Shown: positions 3,820 to 55,926 of the stretch, in pieces
How the letters are laid out: each line of letters starts with the position of its first letter
Position numbering within the stretch: position 1 is the stretch's first letter
Assembly (NCBI RefSeq): GCF_030013595.1
Contig: NZ_CP122768.1
From: Escherichia coli
GTDB lineage: Bacteria; Pseudomonadota; Gammaproteobacteria; Enterobacterales; Enterobacteriaceae
Direction: 5' to 3' (one strand)
Length of the DNA stretch: 64,000 bases
Position numbers and translations under genes: made by a program
The notes under the pieces: model-generated
Databases searched by the model: none
The model's input: only the letters and a program-made list of their open reading frames with translations
Told to the model about the DNA's origin: nothing

Positions 3820-4284
<465 letters not shown>

Positions 4285-11509: not shown

Positions 11510-11775
11510 AAGGAGTCCCTCCGCACTGTCTGAAACAGTACAGAAATGTCTTCAGGCGTGGCGAAGCCTTACCTGAAGGTAATAAAGCTGAGCAGGGACG
11601 TTAAAACGTCACGGCCTTACGCATCCGGTAACGCCGTGAAAAGACGGGCTTACCGGAAAAGTTTTAATCTCCGTCGAGGGAGAGGCGTGGGATCAGGTTC
11701 CATATAACCTCCGGTAAGTGAAAAAAGCGCCGCAAATAATAAGGAGAATCCAATAATATTCGTAGCATCTATGGC
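11510..11775 (-). promoter_or_regulatory. mgtA 5' leader (Mg2+/proline-sensing leader RNA) containing mgtL
   Basis: Long untranslated leader between PhoP-type promoter and mgtA start, with proline-rich leader ORF. Confidence 0.7.
11650..11703 (-). CDS. mgtL: mgtA leader peptide (17 aa, [17 protein letters not shown])
   Basis: ATG at 11703 and TAA at 11650 on minus strand. Confidence 0.85.
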
Positions 11776-18796: not shown

Positions 18797-19261
18797 ATGA
18801 ACTTTCATCAGTACTATCCTGTCGACATCGTCAACGGCCCCGGCACTCGCTGCACACTGTTTGTCTCCGGGTGTGTTCATGAATGCCCCGGTTGCTATAA
18901 CAAAAGCACATGGCGGGTAAATTCCGGTCAGCCATTTACCAAAGCAATGGAAGACCAGATCATTAACGATCTAAATGACACTCGCATCAAACGCCAGGGG
19001 ATTTCCCTCTCCGGCGGCGATCCGCTGCATCCGCAAAACGTGCCGGATATTCTGAAACTGGTACAACGAATCCGCGCCGAATGTCCGGGTAAAGACATCT
19101 GGGTGTGGACAGGCTATAAACTCGACGAACTCAACGCTGCGCAAATGCAGGTTGTTGATTTGATTAACGTACTGGTCGACGGCAAATTTGTGCAGGATTT
19201 AAAAGACCCTTCCCTGATCTGGCGCGGCAGCAGCAATCAGGTGGTGCATCATTTGCGTTAG
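18797..19261 (+). CDS. nrdG: Anaerobic ribonucleotide reductase activating protein (154 aa)
   Basis: ORF track; radical-SAM CxxxCxxC (CVHECPGCYN). Confidence 0.95.
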   Translation: MNFHQYYPVDIVNGPGTRCTLFVSGCVHECPGCYNKSTWRVNSGQPFTKAMEDQIINDLNDTRIKRQGISLSGGDPLHPQNVPDILKLVQRIRAECPGKDIWVWTGYKLDELNAAQMQVVDLINVLVDGKFVQDLKDPSLIWRGSSNQVVHHLR

Positions 19262-19552
19262 TCACTCATCCAGCCGTTTAGTCGCGTCTTCATAAACGGC
19301 TGAGTTCTCTCTCTTACCAATAGCTATCACCAACACGAGCAACTCTTTATCGTTAACCTGATAAACCAGGCGATATCCCTGTGTGCGCAGCTTAATTTTG
19401 TAGCAGTCCGGTAAATCCCGCAGTTTAGCCGATGGATTGCGCGGCCTTTTCAGCACATCCTCAAGCTTTTTTTTAAATTGTTCCCGGACTGTCACGCCCA
19501 GTTTTTGCCACTCTTTCAGCGCCCGCGGATCAAACGCCAGCTCATAGTTCAT
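19262..19552 (-). CDS. RelE/ParE-superfamily toxin (96 aa), RelE-like
   Basis: ORF track 19262..19630 trimmed to MNYELAFD start at 19552; strong similarity to E. coli RelE from memory (DCYKIKLR..GYRLVYQV, KRE near C-terminus); stop codon abuts nrdG stop. Confidence 0.8.
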   Translation of the reverse strand: MNYELAFDPRALKEWQKLGVTVREQFKKKLEDVLKRPRNPSAKLRDLPDCYKIKLRTQGYRLVYQVNDKELLVLVIAIGKRENSAVYEDATKRLDE

Positions 19553-19784
19553 CCAGTCGGACCTTAATGGCCTCTTGTGGGTTGGCCAGTCGTTCCCTGA
19601 CAGTGCGTAACAAGGCTTCTTCACTATCACTGACAGTGAGCGTTTTTACCGGCATTCGTCCATTTTCCGCAACGTACTGAAACAGCAGTCGCCCTGCTTC
19701 AGTAGGCGTGATATTTAATTTTTCCAGCACCGCATAAGCCTCATTTTTCAGTTTGTCATCCAGGCGGACGTTAAGTGTGGCCAT
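19542..19784 (-). CDS. RelB/DinJ-family antitoxin (80 aa)
   Basis: ORF track; ribbon-helix-helix N-terminus resembling RelB; 11-nt overlap with toxin start; ggagg RBS. Confidence 0.8.
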   Translation of the reverse strand: MATLNVRLDDKLKNEAYAVLEKLNITPTEAGRLLFQYVAENGRMPVKTLTVSDSEEALLRTVRERLANPQEAIKVRLDEL

Positions 19785-19809
19785 TATGCCTCCGGTAATT
19801 ATGAAAAGT

Positions 19810-19839
19810 GTAATGCATTATAGCATTACATATGCATTA
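19810..19839 (-). promoter_or_regulatory. Candidate operator/promoter of the TA operon
   Basis: Inverted repeat GTAATGC-N6-GCATTAC plus a third GCATTAC half-site immediately upstream of the antitoxin start. Confidence 0.5.
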
Positions 19840-19975
19840 CATTCATTTCTGGAAAACGCCTCGCAAAAATGAGGACGACACGCAGGAATATGCCGTGGTG
19901 AAGATAGATATTGCGGTGATTTTACGAAGGGAGAAGAAAGCGTTGGGCGGTAACGTTTCACCGCCCAATAAGGAA

Positions 19976-20365
<390 letters not shown>

Positions 20366-20544
20366 TCACTTCCTTTTTTATTTACACTTCATCCTTCACA
20401 CTGCCTCATCGACGGCTACGCTCATTCGCCCGAGTCACGTACTGCGAGTACGCTCCCCGGCCCTCATTCACTTTCCGTCTCGATGCAGTGCGAATGATTT
20501 TGTGTAATTTTTTAGTTTATAGCGCGGCAGGTCGCGCCAGTTTT

Positions 20545-21897
20545 TTACTGCCCGGCGATTTTCATCTCCGGCAACAGCACAGAACCACACTGTATATTAC
20601 TGCGTGTTTCAATATCGTTACCGACGGTGACAATATTGCGCCACATATCTTTTAAATTACCTGCGATGGTGATTTCACTAACCGGATACTGAATTTCGCC
20701 ATTCTCTACCCAGAAGCCCGCTGCACCACGGGAATAATCACCGGTAATGGCACTCACGCCCTGGCCCATCAGCTCCGTCACCACCAGCCCGGTGCCCATC
20801 TCTTTAAGCATTTGTTCGAAGCTTAGCCCTTGTCCGGCAATCCGCCAGTTGTGAATACCGCCCGCATGTCCGGTGCTTTTCAGCCCCAGTTTCCGCGCCG
20901 AATAGCTGGTCAACAGCCACTGAGTCAGGATGCCATCTTTAATAATATCGCGACGCTCTGTGCGCACACCTTCGCTGTCGAATGGCGTAGAGGCCAGCCC
21001 TTTCAGCAGATGCGGATGCTCTTCAATGGTCAGCCAGTCCGGCAGAATTTGTTTACCCAGCGAATCCAGCAGGAAGGTGGATTTACGGTAAACCGATCCG
21101 CCCGCTATCGCTCCAACCAGATGGCCAAAAAGCCCGGTTGCCACTTCATTGGCAAAAATGACCGGCGCTTTCATGGTGGAGAGTTTACGCGGTGACAGAC
21201 GCGATAAAGTGCGACGAGCACAGTCGGCCCCAACCCACTCTGGCGTTTGCAGATCGCTCATCGCACGGCCAATGGTGTAGGCGTAATCACGCTCCATATC
21301 GCCATTTTCTTCGGCAATTACACAGCTGGAGAGCGAATGACGCGTAGAGCAGTAACCCTGCAACATGCCGTGGCTGTTGCCGAAAACTTTGACACCGTAG
21401 TGGCTGTTAAAGCTACCGCCTTCGGTATTGGTGATGCGTTTGTCCGCCTGCAATGCCGCCTGTTCTGCGCGGGCCGCCAGTTCAATGGCTTCATCCGGGG
21501 AAACTTCCGCAGGGTGGAACAAGTCGAGATCCGGTGCGTCAAAGGCCAGCAGCTCTTTGTCTGCCACGCCGGCACAGGGATCTGGCGAGGTATAACGGGC
21601 AATATCCAGTGCCGCCTGTACGGTGCGGGCAATGGCCTGCGGGCTTAAATCGGTAGACGATGCGCTACCTTTGCGGTTCTGGTGATAAACAGTGATCCCC
21701 AACGCGCCATCGCTATTGAATTCAACATTCTCCACTTCACCATAACGCGTGCTTACGCTAATGCCGGTGGTCTTGCTGACGGCAACTTCTGCACCGTCCG
21801 ATTTGCCTGAGGCCAACTCCAGCGCAGTCGAAACTGCTTCTTCCAGAATCTTGCGCTGCGCTTCAACTTGAGAGATTACTTTCATTGCAAGTGCCAT
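20545..21897 (-). CDS. pmbA: Metalloprotease PmbA/TldE (450 aa)
   Basis: ORF track; recognised sequence. Confidence 0.95.
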
Positions 21898-21990
21898 AAT
21901 GTAGAGAGTTTCTCTGAAGTCTAACAGAGAACCGTTTTTCAGTGCGCATCTTAACTGGTAACATTAGCCTCTTTTTTTAAGGAGCCTGAG

Positions 21991-22542
21991 ATGACTAAGC
22001 AGCCCGAAGACTGGCTCGACGACGTTCCCGGTGATGACATCGAAGACGAAGACGATGAAATTATCTGGGTCAGTAAAAGTGAAATTAAACGCGATGCCGA
22101 GGAGCTAAAACGCCTTGGCGCGGAAATTGTTGATCTGGGGAAAAACGCGCTGGATAAGATCCCGTTAGATGCGGATCTGCGCGCGGCTATTGAGCTCGCC
22201 CAGCGTATTAAGATGGAAGGTCGCCGCCGCCAGTTGCAGCTCATCGGTAAGATGCTGCGCCAGCGCGACGTAGAGCCTATTCGTCAGGCGCTGGATAAGC
22301 TGAAAAACCGCCACAACCAGCAGGTGGTGTTGTTCCATAAACTGGAAAACCTGCGCGATCGTCTGATCGACCAGGGTGATGATGCCATCGCTGAAGTATT
22401 AAATCTGTGGCCCGATGCCGATCGTCAGCAACTGCGTACTCTGATCCGCAACGCGAAGAAAGAGAAAGAAGGGAATAAGCCGCCGAAATCCGCACGCCAG
22501 ATTTTCCAGTATCTGCGCGAGTTAGCAGAGAACGAAGGGTAA
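21991..22542 (+). CDS. yjgA: Ribosome-associated DUF615 protein YjgA (183 aa)
   Basis: ORF track; divergent from pmbA. Confidence 0.9.
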
Positions 22543-22564
22543 TTTTCGTTGTTGATGTGAGTAT

Positions 22565-22610
22565 GGTTTGCCGGATACGGTGTAAACGCCTTATCCGGCA
22601 ATGCTATATC
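22565..22610. repeat. REP element
   Basis: gccggatacggtgtaaacgccttatccggc. Confidence 0.5.
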
Positions 22611-22624
22611 AGGCTGAGGCCGAA

Positions 22625-23998
22625 TTACTGCGCGGCTTCCGCTTTCTTCGCCAGACCATCCAGCAGTTTCTGATGGATCCCACCAAAACCGCCGTTGCTC
22701 ATCACCAGAATATGGTCGCCAGGCTGAGCGGTTTTCACCACCATATCTGCCAGCGTATCCACATCGCCGCTCCAGTGTGCAGGCTGAACGCAGGCTTCTG
22801 CCACTTCTGCCACCTGCCACGGAATATGCGCCGGTTGCAGCAGGAAGACTTCATCGGCACGACCTAATGAAGGTGCCAAATCATCTTTGCAGATCCCCAT
22901 TTTCATGGTATTCGAACGCGGCTCCAGTACGGCAATAATGCGCGCCGTACCGCCAACTTTGCCACGCAGCGCCGCCAGCGTTGCCAGAATCGCAGTCGGG
23001 TGATGGGCGAAATCGTCATATACCGTCACGCCATTAGCTTCACCACGCAACTCCAGACGGCGACGAGCATTAATAAACGAACCCAGCGCGTTAGCGGCAT
23101 CTGCCGGCGCTACGCCAACATGGCGGGCCGCCGCAATCGCCATCAGGCCATTATGCATATTATGTTCGCCTACCAGCGACCATTTCACTTCGCCCACTTT
23201 TTCGCCATCCAGCAAGACTTCCCATTCGGAAGCATCGGTGGTTAGCTTTTTCGCCTGCCAGTGACCCTGCTCGCCCACCAGCTCCTGCTCGCTCCAGCAG
23301 CCCATCGCCATGGTCTGTTTCAGGTTGATGTCGTTTTCCGGCCAGATAATACGGCCCTGCCCCGGAACGATACGCACCAGATGGTGGAACTGTTTCTGGA
23401 TCGCTTTCAGGTCGTCAAAGATATCGGCGTGATCGAACTCAAGGTTGTTGAGGATCAGCGTACGCGGGCAGTAATGGACAAATTTAGAGCGTTTGTCGAA
23501 GAAGGCGCAGTCGTACTCATCCGCTTCGATAACAAAGAAGTCGCTTTCGCCCAGACGCGCCGAGACCTCAAAGTTCCCCGGCACACCGCCGATCACAAAT
23601 CCCGGTTTGTAACCGCACTGTTCCAGAATCCAGGTCGCCATTCCCGCCGTGGTGGTTTTGCCGTGTGTACCAGCAACGGCCAGCACCCAGCGGTCGCGCA
23701 GCACAAAATCGTGCAGCCACTGCGGACCTGACATATAAGGGATGTTTTTTTCCAGTACCGCTTCCACACACGGATTTCCACGGGTCATGGCGTTGCCAAT
23801 AATCACCAGATCCGGCTGCGGGTCGAGCTGGCTGGCATCGTAACCCTGAATCAGTTCAATGCCTTGCTTCTCAAGTAAGGTGCTCATCGGCGGATACACA
23901 TTGGCGTCCGAACCCGTTACTTCATGGCCTAACTGGCGCGCCAGCATCGCCAGACCGCCCATAAACGTGCCACAAATTCCTAAAATATGAATGCGCAT
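22625..23998 (-). CDS. mpl: UDP-N-acetylmuramate:L-Ala-gamma-D-Glu-meso-DAP ligase (457 aa)
   Basis: ORF track; Mur ligase motifs (GTHGKTTT). Confidence 0.95.
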   Translation of the reverse strand: MRIHILGICGTFMGGLAMLARQLGHEVTGSDANVYPPMSTLLEKQGIELIQGYDASQLDPQPDLVIIGNAMTRGNPCVEAVLEKNIPYMSGPQWLHDFVLRDRWVLAVAGTHGKTTTAGMATWILEQCGYKPGFVIGGVPGNFEVSARLGESDFFVIEADEYDCAFFDKRSKFVHYCPRTLILNNLEFDHADIFDDLKAIQKQFHHLVRIVPGQGRIIWPENDINLKQTMAMGCWSEQELVGEQGHWQAKKLTTDASEWEVLLDGEKVGEVKWSLVGEHNMHNGLMAIAAARHVGVAPADAANALGSFINARRRLELRGEANGVTVYDDFAHHPTAILATLAALRGKVGGTARIIAVLEPRSNTMKMGICKDDLAPSLGRADEVFLLQPAHIPWQVAEVAEACVQPAHWSGDVDTLADMVVKTAQPGDHILVMSNGGFGGIHQKLLDGLAKKAEAAQ

Positions 23999-24173
23999 AC
24001 GTCACTATCCTTTTTTAATCTGCCGCTCATTTTACGCATATGTCGGGCAAGTGAGAAACGCATTTCAGGATAATCCGTAATTTGCTGGCGCGATTCACCT
24101 GAGCGCAGCATTGAGATTATTTGTTAAGATTGTTGCGGTCGCTTTACTCCATAAACATTGCAGGGAAAGTTTT

Positions 24174-25172
24174 ATGAAAACGTTAGGTGAATTTATTGTC
24201 GAAAAGCAGCACGAGTTTTCTCATGCTACCGGTGAGCTCACTGCTTTGCTGTCGGCAATAAAACTGGGCGCCAAGATTATCCATCGCGATATCAACAAAG
24301 CAGGACTGGTTGATATCCTGGGTGCCAGCGGTGCTGAAAACGTGCAGGGCGAGGTTCAGCAGAAACTCGACTTGTTCGCTAATGAAAAACTGAAAGCCGC
24401 ACTGAAAGCACGCGATATCGTTGCGGGCATTGCCTCTGAAGAAGAAGATGAGATTGTCGTCTTTGAAGGCTGTGAACACGCAAAATACGTGGTGCTGATG
24501 GACCCCCTGGATGGCTCGTCCAACATCGATGTTAACGTCTCTGTCGGTACCATTTTCTCCATCTACCGCCGCGTTACGCCTGTCGGCACGCCGGTAACGG
24601 AAGAAGATTTCCTCCAGCCTGGTAACAAACAGGTTGCGGCAGGTTACGTGGTATACGGCTCCTCTACCATGCTGGTTTACACCACCGGATGCGGTGTTCA
24701 CGCCTTTACTTACGATCCTTCGCTCGGCGTTTTCTGCCTGTGCCAGGAACGGATGCGCTTCCCGGAGAAAGGCAAAACCTACTCCATCAACGAAGGAAAC
24801 TACATTAAGTTTCCGAACGGGGTGAAGAAGTACATTAAATTCTGCCAGGAAGAAGATAAGTCCACCAACCGCCCTTATACCTCACGTTATATCGGTTCAC
24901 TGGTCGCGGATTTCCACCGTAACCTGCTGAAAGGCGGTATTTATCTCTACCCAAGCACCGCCAGCCACCCGGACGGTAAACTGCGTTTACTGTATGAGTG
25001 CAACCCGATGGCATTCCTGGCGGAACAAGCGGGCGGTAAAGCGAGCGATGGCAAAGAGCGTATTCTGGATATCATCCCGGAAACCCTGCACCAGCGCCGT
25101 TCGTTCTTTGTCGGCAACGACCATATGGTTGAAGATGTCGAACGCTTTATCCGTGAGTTCCCGGACGCGTAA
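24174..25172 (+). CDS. fbp: Fructose-1,6-bisphosphatase class 1 (332 aa)
   Basis: ORF track 24111..25172 trimmed to [12 protein letters not shown] start at 24174. Confidence 0.95.
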
Positions 25173-25180
25173 TCTCCTGC

Positions 25181-25207
25181 GCCTCTCCACACGGAGAGGC
25201 GTTTTTA
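25181..25207. terminator. Bidirectional terminator fbp / yjfF
   Basis: gcctctcc-acac-ggagaggc hairpin plus T-run; overlaps yjfF stop. Confidence 0.65.
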
Positions 25208-26200
25208 TCGCTGCGCAATATTGACTCTTGTCACTGGCGAACTCTGGCGATTCTCCCACAGCACCGTTAATCCACGCTGTAATGCTATAAAAATAAACAA
25301 CAAAATACCGATGGCGATTTTCGTCCACCATGAGCTCAGCGTGCCATCAAAGTTTATGTAAGTCTGAATCAGTCCCTGAATCGCCACGCCAAAAAGCGTT
25401 CCCAGCACCGTTCCTACCCCACCACTTAACAACGTACCACCAATCACCACCGACGCGATGGCGTCCAGTTCCACACCTACGCCCGCCAGCGCATATCCGG
25501 CCTGGGTATAAATCGAGAAGACAATCCCCGCCAGCGTTGCCAGTCCGGTGGAGAGCATATAAATGCGAATAGTGGTGCTGCGAGTGGAAATCCCCATCAG
25601 GTTCGCCGACGTTGCGTTGCCGCCAATGGCGTATACCTGATTACCAAAACGGGTACGATGCGCGAGGAATATGCCGATAACCACCACCGCCAGCATCAGC
25701 AGCCCCATCGCACTTAAGCGACCGCCGCCAGGGATTTTCCATGCAAGGCTTGAGAGCGTGTCATAAACAGGATGATTTATCGGGATCGACTCTTCCGAAA
25801 CGAGATAGCTGACGCCACGCAAAAAGAACATTCCTGCCAGAGTAATGATAAACGCCGGGATCTTCAGGGCGTCGATCAAAAGCCCCATAAATGCGCCAAA
25901 GGCACAGCCCATCACCAGCACCAGTGGAAACGCCAGCAGCGGCGAGAGGCCGAAATCGCCAATCACTTTTGCCAGAAACACGCCGGTAAAGGCGATCACC
26001 GAACCAACGGAGAGATCGATCCCACCGGAGAGGATCACAAAGGTCATGCCAACGGCGATTATCCCAAGAAAGGCATTATCGGTCAGGATATTGCAGATCA
26101 CTCTTGTGGAAGCAAAACCGGGAAACTGGGTCAGGCAGTAGAAATAACCCAGCACAAAGACGCCGATGGTGATCATCAGTGGCAAATTACGTTTTATCAC
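25205..26200 (-). CDS. yjfF: ABC transporter permease (galactofuranose), 331 aa
   Basis: ORF track; polytopic membrane protein; 14-nt overlap with ytfT end. Confidence 0.9.
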   Translation of the reverse strand: MIKRNLPLMITIGVFVLGYFYCLTQFPGFASTRVICNILTDNAFLGIIAVGMTFVILSGGIDLSVGSVIAFTGVFLAKVIGDFGLSPLLAFPLVLVMGCAFGAFMGLLIDALKIPAFIITLAGMFFLRGVSYLVSEESIPINHPVYDTLSSLAWKIPGGGRLSAMGLLMLAVVVIGIFLAHRTRFGNQVYAIGGNATSANLMGISTRSTTIRIYMLSTGLATLAGIVFSIYTQAGYALAGVGVELDAIASVVIGGTLLSGGVGTVLGTLFGVAIQGLIQTYINFDGTLSSWWTKIAIGILLFIFIALQRGLTVLWENRQSSPVTRVNIAQR

Positions 26201-27212
26201 GGTTACGTACCCCTTTAATCAGACTGATAAAGCGTTGCGACTGAACAATCAGCACGCAAAGCACCACCACCGCTTTTACGACCTGGTTCATCTCCGGCGG
26301 AAATCCAGAAAGCAAAATTCCGGTGTTCATCCCCTGAATAATCAGCGCCCCCACCACCGAAAGCAGTAGGTTAAAACGTCCGCCCATCAGCGAACCACCG
26401 CCAATCACCACCGCGAGAATGGCGTCCAGCTCCAGCCATAATCCGGCGTTGTTGGCATCGGCACCGCGAATATCCGCCGCCACGATAATGCCCGCAATCG
26501 CCGCACACAGCCCGCTCAACACGTAGGTGAGCATGACGATGATTCGCGTGTTGACTCCGGCATTTTTTGCCGCCCGAATATTGATACCAACGGCTTCGAT
26601 AAACATCCCCAGTGCCGTTTTGCGGGTCAACAGCCAGAACAGGAGAAGCGTCAGCACCGCAATAATGACTGGCGTTGGCAGGAACAACAGCGATCCACTG
26701 CCGAACCAGGAGAGATCCGGTGAGTTAAATGTGACGATTTGCCCGGAGGTGATCAGTTGCGCCACGCCACGCCCGGCGACCATCAGGATCAGGGTGGCAA
26801 CAAACGGCTGAATTTTGAGGATCGCTACCAGTATGCCGTTCCACAATCCCGCCAGGATGCCAGTGCCCAGGGCGCTTAACAAAACAATCGGCAGGCTGAA
26901 TCCCGCGACCGTCATCGCAGCCGTTGTGGCTCCGGCGATAGCCATCACCGCCCCTACGGAGAGATCAATCCCACCAGTGGCGATAACCAGCGTCATGCCA
27001 ATCGCCAGTAGCGCAACGGGGGCCGCACGGTTAAGAATGTCGATAGGGCTACCGAACAAACGCCCATCCTGAAGCACCACCTGCCAGAAATGCGGGGCCA
27101 CCAGGCTATCGACCAGCAACACCAGCAATAGCGCCGCCAGCTGCGGCATTCCCGTTGGCCAGCGAAAGCGCCTTTTCGGTGGCGTAGTGTCCGGGAGAGA
27201 TTGAGGCATCAC
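26187..27212 (-). CDS. ytfT: ABC transporter permease (galactofuranose), about 341 aa
   Basis: ORF track 26187..27233; start chosen to avoid overlap with the ytfR coding end; start uncertain by a few codons. Confidence 0.88.
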   Translation of the reverse strand: MMPQSLPDTTPPKRRFRWPTGMPQLAALLLVLLVDSLVAPHFWQVVLQDGRLFGSPIDILNRAAPVALLAIGMTLVIATGGIDLSVGAVMAIAGATTAAMTVAGFSLPIVLLSALGTGILAGLWNGILVAILKIQPFVATLILMVAGRGVAQLITSGQIVTFNSPDLSWFGSGSLLFLPTPVIIAVLTLLLFWLLTRKTALGMFIEAVGINIRAAKNAGVNTRIIVMLTYVLSGLCAAIAGIIVAADIRGADANNAGLWLELDAILAVVIGGGSLMGGRFNLLLSVVGALIIQGMNTGILLSGFPPEMNQVVKAVVVLCVLIVQSQRFISLIKGVRNRDKT

Positions 27213-27222
27213 ACTGTTCTCC

Positions 27223-28725
27223 TTACGCCGCAATGGCGTTCATGATCGCCGGAACGGAAAGCTCTGCCAGCGGGATCTCCGCCACCTGTTTGCGATCGCG
27301 CATGATAATCACCCGGTCGGCATAGCCCACCAGCTCTTCCAGTTCGGAAGAGATCACCAGCAGCGCCAGACCATCGGCGCACAGCGTTTCAATCAGGCGG
27401 ATGATCTCGGCATGCGCACCAACGTCAATGCCGCGGGTTGGCTCATCGAGGATCAGAAATTGCGGTCGGGTCAGTAGCCAACGTGAAAGCAACACTTTTT
27501 GCTGATTGCCGCCGGAGAGAAATTCAATCGGTTGTTCAGTTGAAGGTGTGCGAATGCCAAGCTGGCGGATAAAGCGTTGGGCAATCTCTTGCTGTTCTTT
27601 GCGGGAAATCGGTCGTAGCCAGCCGCGCTGGGCCTGGAGAGCAAGGATGATATTTTCCCGCACCGAGGCGGCGGCGATGATGCCATCGGTTTTCCTGTCT
27701 TCCGGGCAGAAGCCGATACCCAGTACCGATGCCTGATGTGGCGATCGCAGGGTTTGCTGTTTGCCTTTGATCAACGCCGTGCCGCTGTCAGCAGGTTTGA
27801 TCCCGAAGATCACTTCGGCGGTTTCGGTACGTCCTGATCCCAGCAAGCCTGCCAGGCCAACGATCTCGCCGGGGCGTACTTCGAGATCAAACGGTGCGAT
27901 CGTTCCTTTTTTGCCGTAATTTTTGAACGCGGCAACGGGTTTGTCGCTCAGCAATGTTCGTCCGGCACGCTGTAGCGCGTGGGTGTCCAGCTCGCGCCCC
28001 AGCATCATTTTTACCAGTTCGATCTGCGGTAGCTCGCGGGTTTCCCGACAGCCTACGAAACTGCCGTTGCGTAAGACGGTGATCCGATCGCTGACCTGAT
28101 AGACCTGATCGAGAAAGTGAGTAACGAAGATCAGGCTGACGCCGCGATCGTGCAACTGACGCATCAGGCCAAACAGTAACTCTACTTCCTGAGTGTCGAG
28201 GCTGGCGGTGGGTTCATCGAGGATCAGCACTTTGGCGGAGAGATCGATGGCCCGGCAAATGGCGACGATTTGCTGCATCGCCACTGAAAAGCGGTTAAGC
28301 GGTTCGCGCACGTCGAGGGAGAAACCGTAAGATGCCATCAGTTCGGTGGCGCGCTTTTCCATCTCTTTACGGCGTAGAAGGCCGAAACGTTTGGGTTCGC
28401 GACCTATGAATAGATTATCAGCGACCGACATATTGGGTAGCAGGTTGACTTCCTGATAGACGGTGCCGATGCCGAGTTGTTGTGCGTGGGCGGTATTTTT
28501 CGGTGAGATAGTCTGGCCTTCCAGCCAGATGGTGCCACGATCGGCGTGGTAGACACCGGTTAAGGCTTTGATTAGCGTTGATTTTCCCGCCCCGTTTTCA
28601 CCGAGCAGCGCCATGATTTCACCACGGCGCAGGCTGAAATCAACGTTGTCTAACGCTTTGACGCCGGGGAAAAATTTACTTAATCCTTCGGTGCGGAGGA
28701 TTTCCTGGTGTTGGTTAGTATTCAT
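27223..28725 (-). CDS. ytfR: ABC transporter ATP-binding protein with duplicated ATPase domains (500 aa)
   Basis: ORF track 27223..28776 trimmed to MNTNQHQEIL; two Walker A motifs (GENGAGKST, GLLGSGRTE). Confidence 0.9.
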   Translation of the reverse strand: MNTNQHQEILRTEGLSKFFPGVKALDNVDFSLRRGEIMALLGENGAGKSTLIKALTGVYHADRGTIWLEGQTISPKNTAHAQQLGIGTVYQEVNLLPNMSVADNLFIGREPKRFGLLRRKEMEKRATELMASYGFSLDVREPLNRFSVAMQQIVAICRAIDLSAKVLILDEPTASLDTQEVELLFGLMRQLHDRGVSLIFVTHFLDQVYQVSDRITVLRNGSFVGCRETRELPQIELVKMMLGRELDTHALQRAGRTLLSDKPVAAFKNYGKKGTIAPFDLEVRPGEIVGLAGLLGSGRTETAEVIFGIKPADSGTALIKGKQQTLRSPHQASVLGIGFCPEDRKTDGIIAAASVRENIILALQAQRGWLRPISRKEQQEIAQRFIRQLGIRTPSTEQPIEFLSGGNQQKVLLSRWLLTRPQFLILDEPTRGIDVGAHAEIIRLIETLCADGLALLVISSELEELVGYADRVIIMRDRKQVAEIPLAELSVPAIMNAIAA

Positions 28726-28762
28726 AGTTTCCCCCGTTGTAAAGCGTGCGCCAGATAAGACA

Positions 28763-28855
28763 CAACTGCGTCGCATCAGGCATCTCGCACAACCGCCGGA
28801 TGCGGCGTGAATGCCTTATCCGGCGGCCCACAAGTCGGCATCAGGCATTGATGCC
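28763..28855. repeat. REP/BIME repeats between ytfR and ytfQ
   Basis: gccggatgcggcgtgaatgccttatccggc and flanking gcatcaggc units. Confidence 0.6.
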
Positions 28856-28857
28856 CC

Positions 28858-29814
28858 TCAATACCCCATATTTTTCTTCTTCTCTAACTCTTCTTTTGCG
28901 GTATCAGGCAGATAAAGGGTGGATTTGGTCAGGGTCAGCTTTTCAGGCATGGTGCCGTCTTTTTTGTATTTCTCCAGAGCATCAAAAGCGGGGCCTGCCA
29001 TGTTCGGCGTCAGTTCAACGCTGGCGTTCGCTTCGCCATCAATCATCGCTTTGTAGATGTCCGGCACGCCGTCGATAGAGCCTGTCAGGATATCTTTGCC
29101 CGGTTTCAGGCCCGCTTCTTTAATTGCCTGAATTGCACCAATCACCATGTCATCGTTATGGGCGTAAACCATGCAGATGTTTTTGCCGTTGTTTTCCGCT
29201 TTGATAAAGCTCTCCATCACTTCTTTGCCTTTGCTGCGGGTGAAGTCACCTGACTGCGAGCGGATAATTTTGATATTTGGCGCATTCTTAATGGCTTCGG
29301 CAAAGCCTTTCTTACGGTCAATGGCGACGCTGGCCCCAACGGTGCCCTGCAGCTCCACCACGTTGCATGGTTTGCCATTCACTTCTTTTACCAGCCAGTC
29401 ACCAATCAACTTGCCTTCGAGGATGTTGTCGGCGGTGACAGTGGTCATATAGAGAGATTTGTCTTTCACATCGATGGAACGGTCAAGCAAGAAGACCGGG
29501 ATTTCGGCATCTTTCGCCTCTTTTAATACCGGCTCCCAACCGGTCGCTACCACTGGAGCGATAAAGATCGCATCCACCCCTTGCGCGACGAAGGAACGTA
29601 CCGCTTTAATCTGGTTTTCCTGCTTTTGCTGACCATCGGCAATTTTCAACGTAATTCCGCGCTTTTCGGCTTCACTTTTCGCCACATTGGTTTCTGCGGC
29701 GCGCCAGCCGGATTCCGATCCGACCTGCGAAAATCCAACGGTTAATGGAGCGGCCAACGCCATAGACGACATGGCTGCCGAGACTGCAGAGACTACAAGT
29801 AAGCGTTTCCACAT
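28858..29814 (-). CDS. ytfQ: Periplasmic galactofuranose-binding protein (318 aa)
   Basis: ORF track; signal peptide; periplasmic sugar-binding fold. Confidence 0.93.
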   Translation of the reverse strand: MWKRLLVVSAVSAAMSSMALAAPLTVGFSQVGSESGWRAAETNVAKSEAEKRGITLKIADGQQKQENQIKAVRSFVAQGVDAIFIAPVVATGWEPVLKEAKDAEIPVFLLDRSIDVKDKSLYMTTVTADNILEGKLIGDWLVKEVNGKPCNVVELQGTVGASVAIDRKKGFAEAIKNAPNIKIIRSQSGDFTRSKGKEVMESFIKAENNGKNICMVYAHNDDMVIGAIQAIKEAGLKPGKDILTGSIDGVPDIYKAMIDGEANASVELTPNMAGPAFDALEKYKKDGTMPEKLTLTKSTLYLPDTAKEELEKKKNMGY

Positions 29815-30123
29815 AGGGTTGTCCTCGTCGGGGTAATTATTATTGGTGAAAAGATGTTCGCGAAAAAACTATAGACAATTCGTTATGTAACGGATTGCGT
29901 TACATCACACTTCAAAAAAGTAAATAAAACGTTAATCACAAGTTTGTAATCGCTTTCATCTCACTATGAAAAATGCGGCTACGGTTATGGATTTTCCTGC
30001 TCTTTAAACCATCTTAAAACTGGCTAAAAAGGAAAATGAAGAAGAAAACAAGCGAAGACATTCGGCGCGAGTTGGCTATAATACTCGGCACTTGTTTGCC
30101 ACATATTTTTAAAGGAAACAGAC

Positions 30124-30654
30124 ATGAGCTTACTCAACGTCCCTGCGGGTAAAGATCTGCCGGAAGACATCTACGTTGTTATTGAGATCCCGGCTAACGC
30201 AGATCCGATCAAATACGAAATCGACAAAGAGAGCGGCGCACTGTTCGTTGACCGCTTCATGTCCACCGCGATGTTCTATCCGTGCAACTACGGTTACATC
30301 AACCACACCCTGTCTCTGGACGGTGACCCGGTTGACGTACTGGTCCCGACTCCGTACCCGCTGCAGCCGGGTTCTGTGATCCGTTGCCGTCCGGTTGGCG
30401 TTCTGAAAATGACCGACGAAGCCGGTGAAGATGCGAAACTGGTTGCGGTTCCGCACAGCAAGCTGAGCAAAGAATACGATCACATTAAAGACGTTAACGA
30501 TCTGCCTGAACTGCTGAAAGCACAGATCGCTCACTTCTTCGAGCACTACAAAGACCTCGAAAAAGGCAAGTGGGTGAAAGTTGAAGGCTGGGAAAACGCA
30601 GAAGCCGCTAAAGCTGAAATCGTTGCCTCCTTCGAGCGCGCAAAGAATAAATAA
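30124..30654 (+). CDS. ppa: Inorganic pyrophosphatase (176 aa)
   Basis: ORF track; recognised sequence. Confidence 0.97.
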
Positions 30655-30732
30655 GTTCTTCTAGCGTAATAACCCTGAACGCCGGGCTTCGGTTAGTAGG
30701 GGTTTTTTATGCCCGCGATAAATAAACACACC

Positions 30733-31083
30733 TTATTCCACCACCGCCTGCAAACGTAATAACGCCTCTTCCACCACCTCACCCGCAGCCAGACCAATAC
30801 GCTTTGCCAGCCGGGCGCGTAGATCCATCATCCGCACCTGATTCACCAGCACCACGCCGTGCACATCGCCTTCTTCGCAATGTAAAGGAACGCTAAATCC
30901 GACATAACGGGCAAAATTTCCGCCCTGCGTAATGGGGGCCACCAGCGTCATTCCCAGTTGATTAAAGGCTTGAACGGAGAGCACAAGCGCAGGTCGACCA
31001 GCACCTTGCTGTTCATGGCCGCTTGCTGGATCAAAGCCAACCAGCACAATGTCTCCCCGTTCAAATTCACTTTTCTTTACCAT
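30733..31083 (-). CDS. chpB: MazF-family endoribonuclease toxin ChpB (116 aa)
   Basis: ORF track; recognised sequence; overlaps chpS end. Confidence 0.9.
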   Translation of the reverse strand: MVKKSEFERGDIVLVGFDPASGHEQQGAGRPALVLSVQAFNQLGMTLVAPITQGGNFARYVGFSVPLHCEEGDVHGVVLVNQVRMMDLRARLAKRIGLAAGEVVEEALLRLQAVVE

Positions 31084-31328
31084 ATTTCGTCACCCGCAGG
31101 GGTGGATTTACCCCAGACATCCTGCTCGCTAAGTTCCGTGGCGTTCATGTCACACTGTGCCAGCAGTTCATCAAGCGAGTAGCGCCTGGAGATGGGTGTC
31201 AGAATCAGTTGATTGTTGCTCACTTGCGCCTCCACGCTCTGCCCCGGCCGTAAGTTAAGTTCTTTCATCACAACATTAGGAATGACCATACCTGAACTAT
31301 TCCCCCATCTTTTTATGGTAATACGCAT
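31077..31328 (-). CDS. chpS: MazE-family antitoxin ChpS (83 aa)
   Basis: ORF track 31077..31334 trimmed to MRITIKRWGNSSG. Confidence 0.9.
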   Translation of the reverse strand: MRITIKRWGNSSGMVIPNVVMKELNLRPGQSVEAQVSNNQLILTPISRRYSLDELLAQCDMNATELSEQDVWGKSTPAGDEIW

Positions 31329-31539
31329 CTGCACCTCCTTAAGTTATACAAAGTATAACTCACGGTGCTACAGGAAACGTTTTACCCCTGCGCATTTGTG
31401 AACGCCAGCAGAGTTTTTTATGCGTTAACAGATATGGAAAGCGGCTCGGAGAGAAAAACAAAAGGTGAGGGAATTACAAAACAGAATGCGAGTCGTCTCG
31501 CAAAAAACAACGCCACCCGAAGGTGGCGTATGCATATGG

Positions 31540-31881
31540 TTACTTATCCCTGTCTAACCAGTCGCCGCTTTCAATTAGCTTTAATCCATCGACGGGTCGT
31601 TGATAAACGTACATCCATGCACTCCCGTACGGCGTCTGAATCAACTGGCGCGCGTATTCACCGCCCCTGGTGCGCAAGGCATCAAGTTCGGCCAGCGTGG
31701 CGTTGTCAATACGATAAACTTCACCGTGTACTGTTCCGTTCCCCGGAACTGCGCCTGGATAGTGGCCCAGGCTATACAACTGGTAGTTATCGATACTGAA
31801 ATCGCCCAGTAACTGGGCATTGGTCATCCAGTGACTGTTGCCTTGTTTGTGGCGTAAACTGCCGTAGACAAATATTCGCAT
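31540..31881 (-). CDS. ytfP: Gamma-glutamylcyclotransferase-family protein (113 aa)
   Basis: ORF track; immediately downstream of tamB. Confidence 0.85.
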   Translation of the reverse strand: MRIFVYGSLRHKQGNSHWMTNAQLLGDFSIDNYQLYSLGHYPGAVPGNGTVHGEVYRIDNATLAELDALRTRGGEYARQLIQTPYGSAWMYVYQRPVDGLKLIESGDWLDRDK

Positions 31882-31883
31882 TG

Positions 31884-37435
<5,552 letters not shown>

Positions 37436-38385: not shown

Positions 38386-38559
38386 TTTTCATTTATCAGC
38401 AGTCTGAATTTTAACCCTCTGGCGGCTTTACAGTACCTTACGCTATACTAGCCACTGAAAATGCCGGTTCACTTTCTTCGAATCGGCTTTCAATGTGTAT
38501 TTCACACAAATTAATCAACTTCCCCTTCCGAGGATCTGGCCTGAAAGGTCGGATAAGAT

Positions 38560-40495: not shown

Positions 40496-40867
40496 ATGAC
40501 CCTACGCAAGATTCTGGCACTCACCTGCCTGCTGTTGCCGATGATGGCTTCCGCACATCAGTTCGAAACCGGTCAGCGAGTGCCGCCGATTGGCATTACC
40601 GATCGGGGCGAGTTGGTGCTTGATAAAGATCAGTTTAGCTACAAAACCTGGAACAGCGCGCAGTTAGTGGGAAAAGTGCGGGTACTGCAACATATTGCTG
40701 GTCGCACCTCTGCAAAAGAGAAAAACGCGACGCTGATTGAAGCGATTAAATCAGCGAAGTTACCGCACGATCGTTACCAGACCACCACCATTGTTAACAC
40801 CGACGACGCGATTCCGGGTTCAGGGATGTTTGTGCGCAGCAGTCTGGAGAGTAATAAAAAGCGGTAA
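40496..40867 (+). pseudogene. ytfJ: ytfJ truncated by IS1 (123 codons remain; stop codon supplied by IS1 terminal repeat)
   Basis: Signal-peptide-bearing N-terminus recognised; ORF terminates at TAA inside the IS1 inverted repeat at 40865-40867. Confidence 0.75.
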
Positions 40868-40877
40868 TGACTCCAAC

Positions 40878-41381
40878 TTACTGATAGTGTTTTATGTTCA
40901 GATAATGCCCGATGACCTTGTCATGCAGCTCCACCGATTTTGAGAACGACAGTGACTTCCGTCCCAGCCTTGCCAGATGTTGTCTCAGATTCAGGTTATG
41001 CCGCTCAATGCGCTGAGTATAACGCTTGCTGATAACGTGCAGCTTTCCCTTCAGGCGTGATTCATACAGCGGCCAGCCATCCGTCATCCATACCACGACC
41101 TCAAAGGCCGACAGCAGGCTCAGAAGACGCTCCAGTGTGGCCAGAGTGCGTTCACCGAAGACGTGCGCCACAACCGTCCTCCGCATCCTGTCATACGCGT
41201 AAAACAGCCAGCGCTGACGTGATTTAGCACCGACGTAGCCCCACTGTTCGTCCATTTCAGCGCAGACAATCACATCACTGCCCGGTTGTATGCGCGAGGT
41301 TACCGACTGCGGCCTGAGTTTTTTAAGTGGCGGAAAATCGTGTTGAGGCCAACGCCAATAATGCGTGCACTGGCGCGACAT
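40878..41381 (-). CDS. insB: IS1 InsB (167 aa; normally expressed as InsAB' fusion by -1 frameshift)
   Basis: ORF track; overlaps insA in the -1 frame. Confidence 0.95.
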
Positions 41382-41575
41382 CCGACGCCATTCATGGCCA
41401 TATCAATGATTTTCTGGTGCGTACCGGGCTGAGAGGCGGCGTAAGTGAACTGTAGTTGCCATGTTTTACGGCAGTGAGAGCAGAGATAGCGCTGATGTCC
41501 GGCGGTGCTTTTGCCGTTACGCACCACCCCGTCAGTAGCTGAACAGGAGGGACAGCTGATAGAAACAGAAGCCAC
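41300..41575 (-). CDS. insA: IS1 InsA (91 aa)
   Basis: ORF track; [23 protein letters not shown]... Zn-finger/HTH protein. Confidence 0.95.
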
Positions 41576-41789
41576 TGGAGCACCTCAAAAACACCATCAT
41601 ACACTAAATCAGTAAGTTGGCAGCATCACCATAGAAGTAAACTATCAAAAAACGCTCATTATTAAAATATAACTTATTAGCAATTGAATTTTTGCACTTT
41701 AAATACAATCTCTTTTTATTTATAACTTTTTAGGTTGGGAGAAATCAGGATGGCAGAATCAGGAAATACACTGTTTCTGCCATCTGAAT

Positions 41790-42530: not shown

Positions 42531-42719
42531 TTCTCCACCTCGTCTCTGTGAGCGGTGTTAACTTATTGTTTTACTTATACCCTATCGTTAATGAATGCGC
42601 CAACTGTGATAGTGTCATCATTTTCAAAGCGTAAAATTGTGGCATTCTTCACTGTTCTATAAGTAAGACGTTTATTCTCCCTTTTCTTTCGTATTCCCGA
42701 TGATAAAAGGATGTCCCTG

Positions 42720-51329: not shown

Positions 51330-52538
51330 TCAGGCTGTCGCCTGAATCATTTCGGTGGGTTCCTGCTTCAACGAGCGGCCTGACTGCACCATCTCTCCAC
51401 AGGCAAGAACGGCGTGCCCCGCCGCTAAAATGTTACGAGCGCCATTTACATCGGCGTTCGCTGTATATCCACATACCTGGCATCTGAATTTAATTTGTGA
51501 CAGGCGATTTTCTTTCGCTGTATGACCACAGCACGCGCAACGCTGGCTTGTGTACGCTGGCGGAACAGCAAGCACCTGACCGCCACGCCAGAGCTGCTTG
51601 TACTCAAGCTGGCGGCGCATTTCATACCAGCCCTGATCCAGTATCGAACGGTTTAAACCTGATTTTGCCCGGACATTGCGCCGCGGCTGGCTGACCGTAC
51701 CCGCTGCTGACTTTGACATGTTGCTGACCTTCAAATCCTCAATGACTATCATTGCGTGGTTTTTGCTGACGGTCGTTGTGACTTTGTGAAGGTAGTCCCT
51801 GCGGATATTTGCGATACGGGAATGCAGTCGCTGTATTTTGCGTTTCTGCTTCTGCCAGTTATTGCTGAATTTGACCTTGCGGCTTAACTGTCGCTGAAGT
51901 CTCGCCAGCTTCTTCTGTTTTTTCTGAAAACTGTTTACAGGCTCAAAGACTGTGCCATCTGACAGCGTGGCGAGTTTAACCACGCCAGCATCCAGCCCGA
52001 CCATTGATGCTGAAGGATGAACCGGAGTTGATACTTCACTTTCTGTCTGAATACTGATGTACCACTTACCGCAGGACTGGCTGACCGTGACATTTTTCAC
52101 AACACCCGTGACCTGACGGCTATTCCGGTAGCGCATCCAGCCCAGTTTCGGCAGAAAAATACGGCTGTTTTCCTGATAGAGCTTAACGCCCTACGGGTAG
52201 CGGAATGCATCATTCTGTCCCCGCTTTTTGAATCGGGGAAAAGCAGCCCGCTTCTGGAAGAAGTTTTTGTAAGCCCGCTCAAGGTCTTTCAGTGACTGTT
52301 GCAATGGCTGTGACGGGGCATCTTTAAGCCATTGCGTTTCAGTGGCATTTTTCCACTCAACCAGCCAGGAAGCCATTTTCCCGTAAGGGATGTATTTATT
52401 ACCGGCCTCATGATTCTCATTCTGAAGCGCCAGAGCACGATTGAAAACGAAACGACATGCGCCTGCGAAGCGCCTCATTTCACGCTCCTGTTGACCACCG
52501 GGTCTTAACTGGAATTTAAATGCCTGTCGTCGTTTCAC
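51330..52538 (-). pseudogene. tnpB: IS605-family TnpB (RuvC-like RNA-guided nuclease family), interrupted by one in-frame TAG
   Basis: ORFs 52191..52538 and 51330..52136 share one frame; my hand translation across the gap gives ...DAFRYP-stop-GVKLYQENSRIFLPKLGWMRYR...; C-terminal Zn ribbon CACCGH...CQVCG; RuvC-like D/E/D residues. Confidence 0.8.
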
Positions 52539-52608
52539 AGGTCAAATGATACTTTGGTCTGTGAAAAAAGAAACCTATATCCGGCGTGGAAGGTATTGTG
52601 TTTTCCTG

Positions 52609-53020
52609 ATGCATGTTCACCTGGTCTTTGTCCCAAATACCGACGCCAGATTTTTGACCATGACGCGACAGAAAAACTACGCACTTACTTTTCAAATGTA
52701 TGTGCTGATTTTGAAGCTGAACTGGTTGAAATGGATGGCGAACCAGATCACGTCCATTTGTTAATTAAATATCCTCCCAAACTGGCGATATCCAGTCTGG
52801 TAAACAGCCTCAAAGGCGTATCGGGTAGGTTACTGCGACGAGATCGACCAGATATTGCAGTCAGGTATTACTACAAAGGCGTTTTGTGGAGTCCTGGCTA
52901 TTTTGCCAGTAGCTGTGGAGGTGCGCCAATATCCGCCATCCGTCAATCCATTGAACAACAGCAAACACCTGGTCAGGTGGAAAACCGCGCCGTATATCCC
53001 CGCCCTGAAGGACGGGGTTT
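52609..53020 (+). pseudogene. tnpA: IS200-type Y1 (HuH) transposase TnpA, -1 frameshifted near N-terminus
   Basis: MHVHLVFVP in one frame, then KYRRQIF...DHVHLLI... (HuH motif) in another; switch within gtcccaaatac homopolymer context; no in-frame stop until 53159, so C-terminus undefined. Confidence 0.7.
52998..53017. repeat. Subterminal hairpin of the IS element (tnpA-distal end)
   Basis: cccc-gccctgaagga-cgggg; same loop and core as 51296-51317. Confidence 0.6.

Positions 53021-55512: not shown

Positions 55513-55926
<414 letters not shown>

Follow-up and report, generated by a model that had tools for sequence, protein, structure and literature searches.

The chpSB locus

Within the window, that is, the whole 64,000-nucleotide stretch of Escherichia coli DNA that was analysed, two overlapping open reading frames lie on the minus strand between ytfP and ppa, preceded by a Shine-Dalgarno sequence:

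30733..31083, minus strand: chpB, ORF of 116 aa, a MazF/PemK-family endoribonuclease toxin by homology
31077..31328, minus strand: chpS, ORF of 83 aa, AbrB/SpoVT-MazE-type antitoxin, starting at ATG 31328
31333..31340, minus strand: Shine-Dalgarno of chpS, AAGGAGGT, as read from the sequence

By homology and gene order (tamB-ytfP-chpS-chpB-ppa, with the same ytfP and ppa flanks as in NC_000913.3), the interval is the long-known chromosomal chpSB type II toxin-antitoxin (TA) operon of E. coli, known in K-12 (chpBIK, b4224/b4225) since 1993 (Masuda et al. 1993). The toxin matched PemK_toxin in Pfam (PF02452, 4.6e-25, 88.4 bits against a cut-off of 23.1) and the ChpB equivalog in NCBIfam (224.1 bits, cut-off 129); it was 97% identical to K-12 ChpB, with three substitutions, and its best match among solved structures was Kid (1m1f, E 2.4e-20). 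The antitoxin matched MazE_antitoxin (PF04014, 1.5e-11, 44.5 bits, cut-off 24.7) and the ChpS equivalog (192.8 bits, cut-off 101), was 95% identical to K-12 ChpS, with four substitutions, and had MazE as its best solved-structure match. These alignments uphold the MazE/MazF-family membership proposed for the pair in the original prediction. K-12 ChpBK is reported to be a toxic endoribonuclease that the antitoxin neutralises (Zhang et al. 2005). From the identities to the K-12 proteins, we infer that ChpB is here a sequence-specific endoribonuclease of the MazF/PemK fold, and that ChpS combines an N-terminal AbrB/SpoVT-MazE-type DNA-binding domain with a C-terminal tail neutralising ChpB.

The K-12 operon is the same locus, with identical palindrome (see below; 4448416-4448434 in NC_000913.3) and Shine-Dalgarno sequences, and differs from the one in the window by the protein substitutions and a few intergenic SNPs; there was no structural difference. 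The stop codon of chpS and the start codon of chpB share 7 nt (ATGGTAA), an overlap that makes translational coupling probable. The start of chpS, and with it the end of the locus, had initially been placed at 31334, and this had to be corrected: the GTG at 31334 falls within the Shine-Dalgarno sequence, whose GGAGG is kept across the orthologous loci, and the start in both K-12 and RefSeq is the ATG at 31328, in the latter case in the annotation of a 99.9%-identical genome. Frameshift mutants of chpS in MG1655 have been reported to be viable (PMC6018678), which suggests that the module may be only weakly toxic at its native level of expression.

A separate RelBE-type module

A second TA pair was found between nrdG and cybC, 11 kb from chpSB:

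19262..19552, minus strand: RelE-family toxin, 96 aa from ATG 19552, its stop codon abutting that of nrdG
19542..19784, minus strand: RelB/DinJ-family antitoxin, 80 aa, overlapping the toxin gene by 11 nt
19810..19840, minus strand: probable RelB operator, GTAATGC-atat-GTAATGC-TATAAT-GCATTAC in gene orientation, as suggested by its sequence
19259..19966: RelBE-like cassette of about 0.7 kb, in place of the 44-bp spacer that most E. coli genomes have between nrdG and cybC

The assignment of this pair as RelE/RelB-type was borne out. The toxin matched ParE_toxin in Pfam (PF05016, 6.6e-15) and RelE_StbE in NCBIfam (29.9 bits, cut-off 27.9), was 65% identical to K-12 RelE and is annotated in RefSeq as a RelE family toxin, while the antitoxin matched RelB (PF04221, 1.3e-14) and NF008412 (126.8 bits, cut-off 96) and was 48% identical to K-12 RelB. 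Gene order and overlap are those of the relBE genes of K-12 (Qin prophage), from which the pair differs by its nrdG-cybC site and by having no hokD-like third gene. The candidate RelB operator includes an inverted repeat with 8-bp arms (19809-19830) and holds a perfect -10 hexamer between its repeats (19817-19822); the K-12 relB promoter carries related TTGTAAT/ATTACA repeats, with the GTAAT core common to both. The pair at 19262-19784 is an independent RelBE-type module with a repeat-type operator candidate of its own. The bounds of the cassette were obtained by alignment with a genome that does not carry it.

From end to end, both modules together cover 19262-31328 (about 12.07 kb), in agreement with the predicted presence of two modules within 12 kb. 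Their description as lying downstream of ppa and nrdG was right as to position, but each pair is in fact convergent with that neighbour. Both chpSB and the RelBE-like pair are ordinary and already known, being annotated in RefSeq.

A probable operator palindrome upstream of chpS

Immediately upstream of the chpS Shine-Dalgarno sequence, the window contains a palindrome:

31342..31360: probable ChpS(-ChpB) operator with perfect 8-bp arms, AGTTATAC-AAA-GTATAACT
31352..31357, minus strand: predicted -10 hexamer TATACT in the left (upstream) operator arm

The 15-nt form originally noticed, TTATACAAAGTATAA at 31344-31358, was exact in its letters, but the arms are 8 bp and not 6 bp long and the full extent is 31342-31360. 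In gene orientation the site reads AGTTATAC-TTT-GTATAACT, with a GTTATA-N5-TATAAC core at 31343-31359; this core, GTTATACTTTGTATAAC when read from 31359 to 31343, lies 2 nt from AAGGAGGT. A repeat with 6-bp arms alone is common by chance. We found 38 perfect repeats with arms of at least 8 bp and spacers of 0-10 in the window, compared to 12 ± 3.7 in Markov shuffles, most of the 38 being G+C-rich terminators. The palindrome was also considered as a terminator and rejected in that role: its A+T-rich stem is not followed by a T-run, and the terminator of ytfP is a G+C-rich hairpin located at 31510-31529.

The GTTATA-N5-TATAAC motif, allowing up to one mismatch, occurred once in the 64 kb, at chpS, with 0.04 matches expected. 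We then considered 78 ChpS/PemI-family loci drawn from diverse bacteria, and found GTTATA-N5/6-TATAAC (up to two mismatches) within 100 nt upstream in 65 of them; the other 118.6 kb of DNA from the same 78 loci, taken as control, yielded a single match. A ChpB-like toxin was encoded downstream of the antitoxin match in 79 of the 80 loci retrieved. When the syntenic locus was compared across six genera, the 17-bp core was 97% conserved and the adjoining 5' flank 50%, and E. coli genomes that do not carry chpS do not carry the palindrome either.

A characterized counterpart is parD (pemIK) of plasmid R1 (kis-kid, equivalent to pemIK of R100), in which Kis and Kid-Kis were footprinted on an 18-bp region I whose left half was assigned the -10 (Monti et al. 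2007, PMC1865072). The sequence of the parD promoter is GTTATATTTAAATATAAC-ttttat-GGAGGT-gaaga-ATG, and the corresponding sequence of the window is GTTATACTTTGTATAAC-ttaa-GGAGGT-gcag-ATG. Both share the GTTATA/TATAAC half-sites, the placement of the site directly 5' of GGAGGT and a -10-like hexamer in the left half, while ChpS and PemI are 37% identical. There are also differences. The chpS operator is 17 bp long (N5) and that of parD 18 bp (N6), which makes the former a spacing variant of a parD-like operator; the inner base is C/G in chpS (GTTATAC) and T/A in parD (GTTATAT); and parD, which is plasmid-borne whereas chpSB is chromosomal, possesses an extended -10 (TGtTATATT) as well as region II, a weaker second site 33 bp further upstream, both of which are absent at chpS. 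The lone candidate for a region II equivalent upstream of chpS (31413-31429, 53 bp away) has 4 mismatches, is at chance level and varies among E. coli. mazEF (chpA) of K-12 resembles chpSB in gene order and in the folds of both proteins, and the KRWGNS of the ChpS N-terminus resembles MazE, but the K-12 mazE operator is an ATCTACA-based 'alternating palindrome', ATCTACAATGTAGAT...ATCTACATATGAT, whereas chpS uses GTTATA. A MazE-type operator for chpS was discarded, as the ATCTACA repeats of the K-12 mazE promoter are absent upstream of the gene. Judging from these comparisons, the operator places chpSB with parD and not with mazEF.

Inverted repeats that are short and rich in A+T occur often, with about 12 repeats of 8-bp arms expected per 64 kb, and the excess of complementarity in the flanks is modest across the family (240 of 640 positions, with about 191 expected), so the palindrome might be viewed as a chance or mutational by-product, for instance a template-switched quasi-palindrome, with chpSB being controlled from elsewhere. 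This reading is barely credible: it is opposed by the recurrence of the same half-site upstream of the homologous operons of unrelated bacteria and its near absence from their remaining DNA, by the conservation of the core relative to its flank, by the single match in the window and by the homology to a footprinted operator. We therefore strongly infer that the 19-bp palindrome at 31342-31360 is the autoregulatory operator, as had been predicted, on the grounds of its homology to region I of parD and of the family motif. Autorepression by ChpS at this site is likewise well supported by the frequency of the motif in family loci over the control, the -10-like TATACT in the left arm and the likeness to the parD half-sites; no report of a ChpS footprint was found in the literature searched.

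The spacing of the half-sites bears on which protein reads them. N5 (17 bp) was found in the window and in all 10 enterobacterial ChpS-clade loci, and N6 in 51 other loci; the operator type co-varies with the antitoxin N-terminal motif, N5 being specific to the ChpS clade with its KRWGNS-type N-terminus. Such co-variation argues for recognition by the cognate antitoxin. It speaks against the possibility that the site is read mainly by another protein, either plasmid PemI/Kis acting in trans or a host regulator, and so represents a point of cross-talk. That proposal draws on half-sites that match the parD operator exactly, on the presence of PemI homologues in about 1900 Escherichia plasmid records and on the partial functional cross-interaction of chpB and parD proteins reported by Santos-Sierra et al. 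1998 (as cited in PMC7354431). Since, in addition, the palindrome is kept with chpS across genera and genomes whatever their plasmids, we regard cross-talk as very improbable. A minor and doubtful reading is that the N5 operator, which co-varies with the KRWGNS-type N-terminus, insulates chromosomal ChpS from the plasmid PemI/Kis repressors that are often present alongside it.

Predicted promoter elements and proposed autorepression

Across the family, the palindrome has an asymmetric centre, rich in T on the sense strand, which yields TATAYT, and -35-like hexamers peak at a spacing of 17 nt from it. With TATACT as the -10, transcription of chpS is predicted to start near 31345, which corresponds to about 4448431 of NC_000913.3. 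No recognisable -35 was seen in E. coli chpS, where ACGTTT occupies the expected position, and neither a promoter scan nor inspection by eye revealed a full consensus sigma-70 promoter for the gene. Trabulsiella, Kluyvera and RIT691 have ATGACA, ATGACT or ATGCCA as -35, at 16-nt spacing, which are absent from the E. coli sequence. A text search for the chpS transcription start in the literature returned nothing relevant.

In the proposed mechanism, a ChpS dimer, with ChpB as co-repressor, would bind both GTTATA half-sites and cover the -10 element in the upstream arm (31357-31352), as footprinting revealed for Kis/Kid on region I of the homologous parD promoter. Occlusion of the -10 by ChpS would mean that transcription rises as the antitoxin level drops.

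Two further elements lie upstream of the operator, and a longer repeat surrounds it:

31323..31380, minus strand: extended imperfect inverted repeat around the operator, with 21-nt arms that are 76% complementary
31487..31502: CRP-S-like motif TGCGA-N6-TCGCA, about 165 nt upstream of the chpS ATG
31510..31529, minus strand: intrinsic terminator of ytfP, with an 8-bp stem (6 G-C pairs) and a T-run

The terminator is kept in all the orthologous loci and sets chpSB apart from ytfP transcription. The core of the CRP-S-like motif is perfect and had one match in the window (0.14 expected); 9 of 10 enterobacterial loci have the motif in this position, with 0-2 mismatches. A weak terminator-like hairpin was also called on its bases, and no convincing -10 for the motif was found at class I or class II distance.

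Complementarity reaching into the ribosome-binding site

Complementarity continues past the core and into the ribosome-binding site of chpS, for which a simple operator model offers no explanation. One possible explanation is that the palindrome acts mainly or additionally as RNA, a hairpin lowering ChpS translation in those transcripts that begin upstream of 31373, which could arise by read-through from ytfP or at a promoter dependent on Sxy/CRP-S. Folding of 31380-31320 as RNA gave -22.6 kcal/mol (z -4.4), with the Shine-Dalgarno sequence and the AUG both buried by pairing with upstream sequence. In six genera, the complementarity of the non-conserved 5' flank to the Shine-Dalgarno/start region exceeded the shuffled expectation (individual p 0.001-0.11; Fisher 6e-5 to 4e-6), and, when flanks were swapped, native flank pairs were matched by only 2 of 720 permutations (p 0.003). 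The conserved CRP-S-like motif and the reported induction of chpSB by Sxy (review PMC11951105) point in the same direction. However, the promoter geometry of the family and the experimental parD case put the -10 inside the left arm, so that transcripts from that promoter would not contain this arm. Furthermore, the core half-sites are conserved in sequence and do not covary, which is a signature of protein recognition; parD has no such flank complementarity; nothing at the chpS leader scored above the Rfam gathering threshold; the promoter scan found no upstream promoter; and a neutral template-switch extension of the palindrome could yield part of the signal. On balance, we consider a role of the palindrome as RNA unlikely.

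A related scenario is suggested by hicAB of E. coli, a type II module which, according to Turnbull and Gerdes 2017 (as summarised in PMC11951105), has two promoters, one of them CRP-S/Sxy-dependent. Like hicAB, chpSB is Sxy-responsive by report and has a CRP-S-like motif upstream of its operator-proximal promoter; the protein families are unrelated and the chpSB promoters are predicted only, so the likeness is a lead. It is doubtful that chpSB shares this design, with short-leader operator-proximal transcripts from which ChpS is translated well, and long-leader transcripts from a conserved upstream Sxy/CRP-S promoter, in which the palindrome and its lineage-specific flanks would form a hairpin of about -22 kcal/mol hiding the chpS ribosome-binding site and AUG. 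If true, output would shift toward the toxin under competence-type signals. The spacer-to-ribosome-binding-site complementarity is the one point here that deserves an experiment.

Distribution and evolution of the two modules

Among complete E. coli genomes, 57% had an intact chpSB and others a decayed remnant or a different gene (esiB) at the site, and at least six enterobacterial genera have the operon in synteny, with ytfP and ppa on either side. The RelBE-like cassette was found in 453 of 5425 complete E. coli genomes (8%), and relatives with 60-80% DNA identity occur on about 1140 plasmid records. Both modules are dispensable and variably present in E. coli. The use of TA density as a marker of accessory-gene turnover holds insofar as both loci are present in some E. 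coli and absent from others, but chpSB does not fit a recent acquisition: as indicated by its synteny, it is an ancient Enterobacteriaceae resident undergoing loss, and of the two modules it is the RelBE-like cassette alone that has the look of a recent insertion.

The reading as a chpSB operon with its operator palindrome, plus a separate RelBE-type module, both dispensable, is very probable. To what was already annotated, our analysis adds the placement of the chpS operator at 31342-31360, through its homology to parD and the conserved family motif, and a difference in evolutionary behaviour between the two modules, one being an old resident that is being lost and the other a rare insertion with plasmid relatives.

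Identity and gene structure of chpSB

The region 30100-31900 was matched by 5425 of the 5426 complete E. coli genomes (best match, 99.9%), and the window belongs to the E. coli chromosome. RefSeq annotation of the best-matching genome gave the gene order tamB-ytfP-chpS-chpB-ppa. The window itself has the following features:

30733-31083, minus strand, chpB ORF
31077-31328, minus strand, chpS ORF (ATG at 31328; 83 aa, as annotated in K-12)
31333-31340, Shine-Dalgarno of chpS, AAGGAGGT

The chpS stop and chpB start overlap by 7 nt. The end coordinate originally predicted, 31334, corresponds to a GTG reached by ORF-finder extension; this codon falls within the Shine-Dalgarno and was rejected as start in favour of the ATG that yields the K-12-annotated ChpS. 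ChpB, 97% identical to K-12, matched Pfam PemK_toxin (4.6e-25) and the NCBIfam ChpB equivalog (224 bits, cut-off 129), its closest solved structure being Kid (1m1f, E 2.4e-20). ChpS, 95% identical to K-12, matched Pfam MazE_antitoxin (1.5e-11) and the NCBIfam ChpS equivalog (192.8 bits, cut-off 101), with MazE (1mvf) as closest solved structure. These matches therefore bore out the proposed MazE/MazF-family membership, and chpSB is an already-known system.

A conserved, probable operator upstream of chpS

The 15-bp palindrome noted at 31344-31358 is present; it is the inner part of a longer perfect inverted repeat with 8-bp arms, AGTTATAC-AAA-GTATAACT (31342-31360). About 12 such repeats are expected by chance per 64 kb, so the argument for an operator rests on position and conservation. 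We compared the chpS promoter (GTTATACTTTGTATAAC-ttaa-GGAGGT-gcag-ATG) with the fetched pemIK promoter of parD, from R1/R100 (GTTATATTTAAATATAAC-ttttat-GGAGGT-gaaga-ATG). The parD element compared here is the 18-bp region I, on which Kis and Kid-Kis have been footprinted and where the -10 element overlaps the left half (Monti et al. 2007, PMC1865072). Conservation was then assessed in 80 ChpS/PemI-family antitoxin loci from a species-level genome collection, 79 of them followed by a ChpB-like toxin and 78 usable for upstream analysis. GTTATA-N5/6-TATAAC, allowing up to 2 mismatches, was found within 100 nt upstream in 65 of the 78 loci, compared to a single match in their remaining 118.6 kb. 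The window has a single N5 motif, the one at chpS (0.04 expected), and in six genera with syntenic ytfP-chpS-chpB-ppa the 17-bp core was 97% conserved, against 50% for the adjoining upstream flank. Homology to the footprinted parD site and family-wide motif conservation thus support reading the palindrome as a likely autoregulatory operator.

By its proteins chpSB belongs to the mazEF family, but its putative operator groups with that of parD, since the mazE promoter of K-12 is built on ATCTACA repeats. Compared with parD region I, the ChpS-clade site has a centre 1 bp shorter (N5 rather than N6) and no extended -10; no convincing counterpart of parD region II was found there. [quoted passage not shown]

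Operator type by antitoxin N-terminal motif
K(K/R)WGNSxGMVIP (ChpS clade): GTTATAC-TTT-GTATAAC (N5, 17 bp)
LRKVGGSxMLAVP (Kis/PemI clade): N6 form (18 bp)
QKWGNSAAVRLP (MazE-like): ATCTACA-type sites
LRKYGNST-type: other repeats, TGTTGAACA/TGTTTAACA

Such a pattern would be expected if the DNA-binding domain and its operator had co-evolved. RefSeq for K-12 annotates a small antisense RNA, ameF (aMEF), over mazF, mazE and the promoter of both (NC_000913.3 2911051-2911450), and nothing similar at chpSB.

Across the family, the centre of the element is asymmetric and T-rich on the sense strand, and -35-like hexamers are most frequent 15 nt ahead of the first G, equivalent to a 17-nt spacer to TATAYT. 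Together they indicate a TATAYT -10 element whose first base is the third of the left half-site, a placement with which the parD experiments agree. The putative -10 of chpS would be TATACT (31357-31352); transcription would then start near 31345, leaving a leader of about 17-20 nt. A weak point is that E. coli chpS lacks a -35 where one would be expected (the hexamer is ACGTTT); at that place Trabulsiella, Kluyvera and RIT691 have ATGACA-like hexamers. With the -10 inside the left half-site, a ChpS dimer occupying both half-sites would block open-complex formation, ChpB would probably act as co-repressor, by analogy with Kid for Kis, and antitoxin loss would derepress chpSB.

A predicted extended hairpin and a CRP-S-like motif upstream of chpS

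The palindrome extends imperfectly to about 31323-31380, a stretch which as RNA folds at -22.6 kcal/mol (z -4.4) with the Shine-Dalgarno and AUG paired. In six genera, the non-conserved 5' flank was complementary to the Shine-Dalgarno/start beyond shuffled flanks (Fisher p 6e-5 to 4e-6; comparison loci L013-L017, around 648-710, included), native flanks paired better than swapped ones (p 0.003), and complementarity was mildly raised family-wide (240 of 640 positions, about 191 expected). The plain operator model does not account for this complementarity. A hairpin covering the ribosome-binding site conflicts with a -10 in the left arm, because transcripts from that -10 would lack the arm; possible reconciliations are long transcripts from an upstream promoter, a neutral template-switch extension of the palindrome, or a longer symmetric protein footprint.

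A perfect CRP-S-like core, TGCGA-N6-TCGCA (TGCGAGTCGTCTCGCA, 31487-31502), follows closely on the ytfP terminator and precedes the chpS ATG by about 165 nt. The window has no other match (0.14 expected). Most enterobacterial chpS loci keep the motif in this position, with variation at its centre; by score, the same bases double as a weak terminator-like hairpin. We sought a promoter served by this motif and could place none. A review describes chpSB as Sxy-induced (PMC11951105). We consider it improbable that chpSB has two promoters in the manner of hicAB, with the operator palindrome serving a second role on long transcripts as an RBS-occluding hairpin.

The RelBE-like pair and other features of the window

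19262-19552, minus strand, RelE-family toxin
19542-19784, minus strand, RelB/DinJ antitoxin

This pair lies between nrdG (plus strand) and cybC (minus strand), and its toxin shares 65% identity with K-12 RelE, its antitoxin 48% with K-12 RelB. As noted, both TA modules fall within about 12 kb (combined span, about 12.07 kb), chpSB next to ppa and the RelBE-like pair next to nrdG, but each is convergent with that neighbour and so shares no operon with it. Upstream of the RelB-like gene (19810-19840, gene orientation), GTAATGC-atat-GTAATGC-TATAAT-GCATTAC has two direct repeats and an inverted one arranged around a perfect -10 hexamer; it is similar to the TTGTAAT/ATTACA repeats found in the relB promoter of K-12 and is probably the RelB operator.

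The cassette, about 0.7 kb, stands in place of the 44-bp nrdG-cybC spacer and sits so close against nrdG that the gene's final sense codon and stop are synonymously recoded (19259-19268; CGT TAG vs CGA TGA). Beside cybC, a new hairpin, TTGGGCGG...CCGCCCAA (19943-19968), has taken the place of the earlier bidirectional nrdG/cybC terminator. Cassette relatives at 60-80% DNA identity are found on about 1140 plasmid records, most of them conjugative. The sole matches of at least 99% to chpS and the cassette in PLSDB come from NZ_CP134663.1, a 4.9-Mb E. coli chromosome filed among plasmids, and should not be read as a sign of plasmid carriage.

Rfam gathering-level matches in the window, none overlapping either TA locus, were:

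11603-11718, Mg2+ riboswitch (mgtA leader)
28749-28825, naRNA4
38441-38498, STnc450
42597-42719, ES239 sRNA
55906-55990, RpsF leader

The sole large difference from the closest genome, HCP5S3_I2, is the ytfJ-cysQ gap (40862-41631), about 770 bp here and about 1240 bp there, where it holds a frameshifted hypothetical gene. By annotation of a near-identical genome and offset from it (L090), an IS200/IS605 remnant, insQ/tnpB with an internal stop plus truncated tnpA, lies inside a TetR-family gene beside ytfB (about 51330-52970). The window also contains tabA (yjgK, 'toxin-antitoxin biofilm protein'; about 3820-4272 by offset from L089), which is reportedly induced on deletion of five TA systems including chpB (review PMC11951105).

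Gain and loss of the two modules

TA density had been taken as a marker of accessory-gene turnover, and both modules are indeed variably present: chpSB is intact in 3083 of 5425 E. coli genomes (57%) and the RelBE-like cassette is found in only 453 of 5425 (8%). At least three alleles of the ppa-ytfP gap occur in E. coli: intact chpSB, a decayed remnant of 378 bp, and esiB, a Sel1-repeat gene (e.g. Nissle; locus L006, 3556-5590). The 378-bp filler, as in MCJCHV-1 (locus L005, 656-1033), retains chpB fragments at about 75% identity and lacks chpS, the Shine-Dalgarno and the palindrome. In Buttiauxella izardii, a ChpS homologue in the ytfP-ppa gap (locus L070, 701-817) is reduced to its C-terminal half (residues 45-83, 64% identity), a further independent decay of the module. 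Synteny in six genera together with this truncated copy indicates that chpSB is not a recent arrival but an old resident that is being lost.
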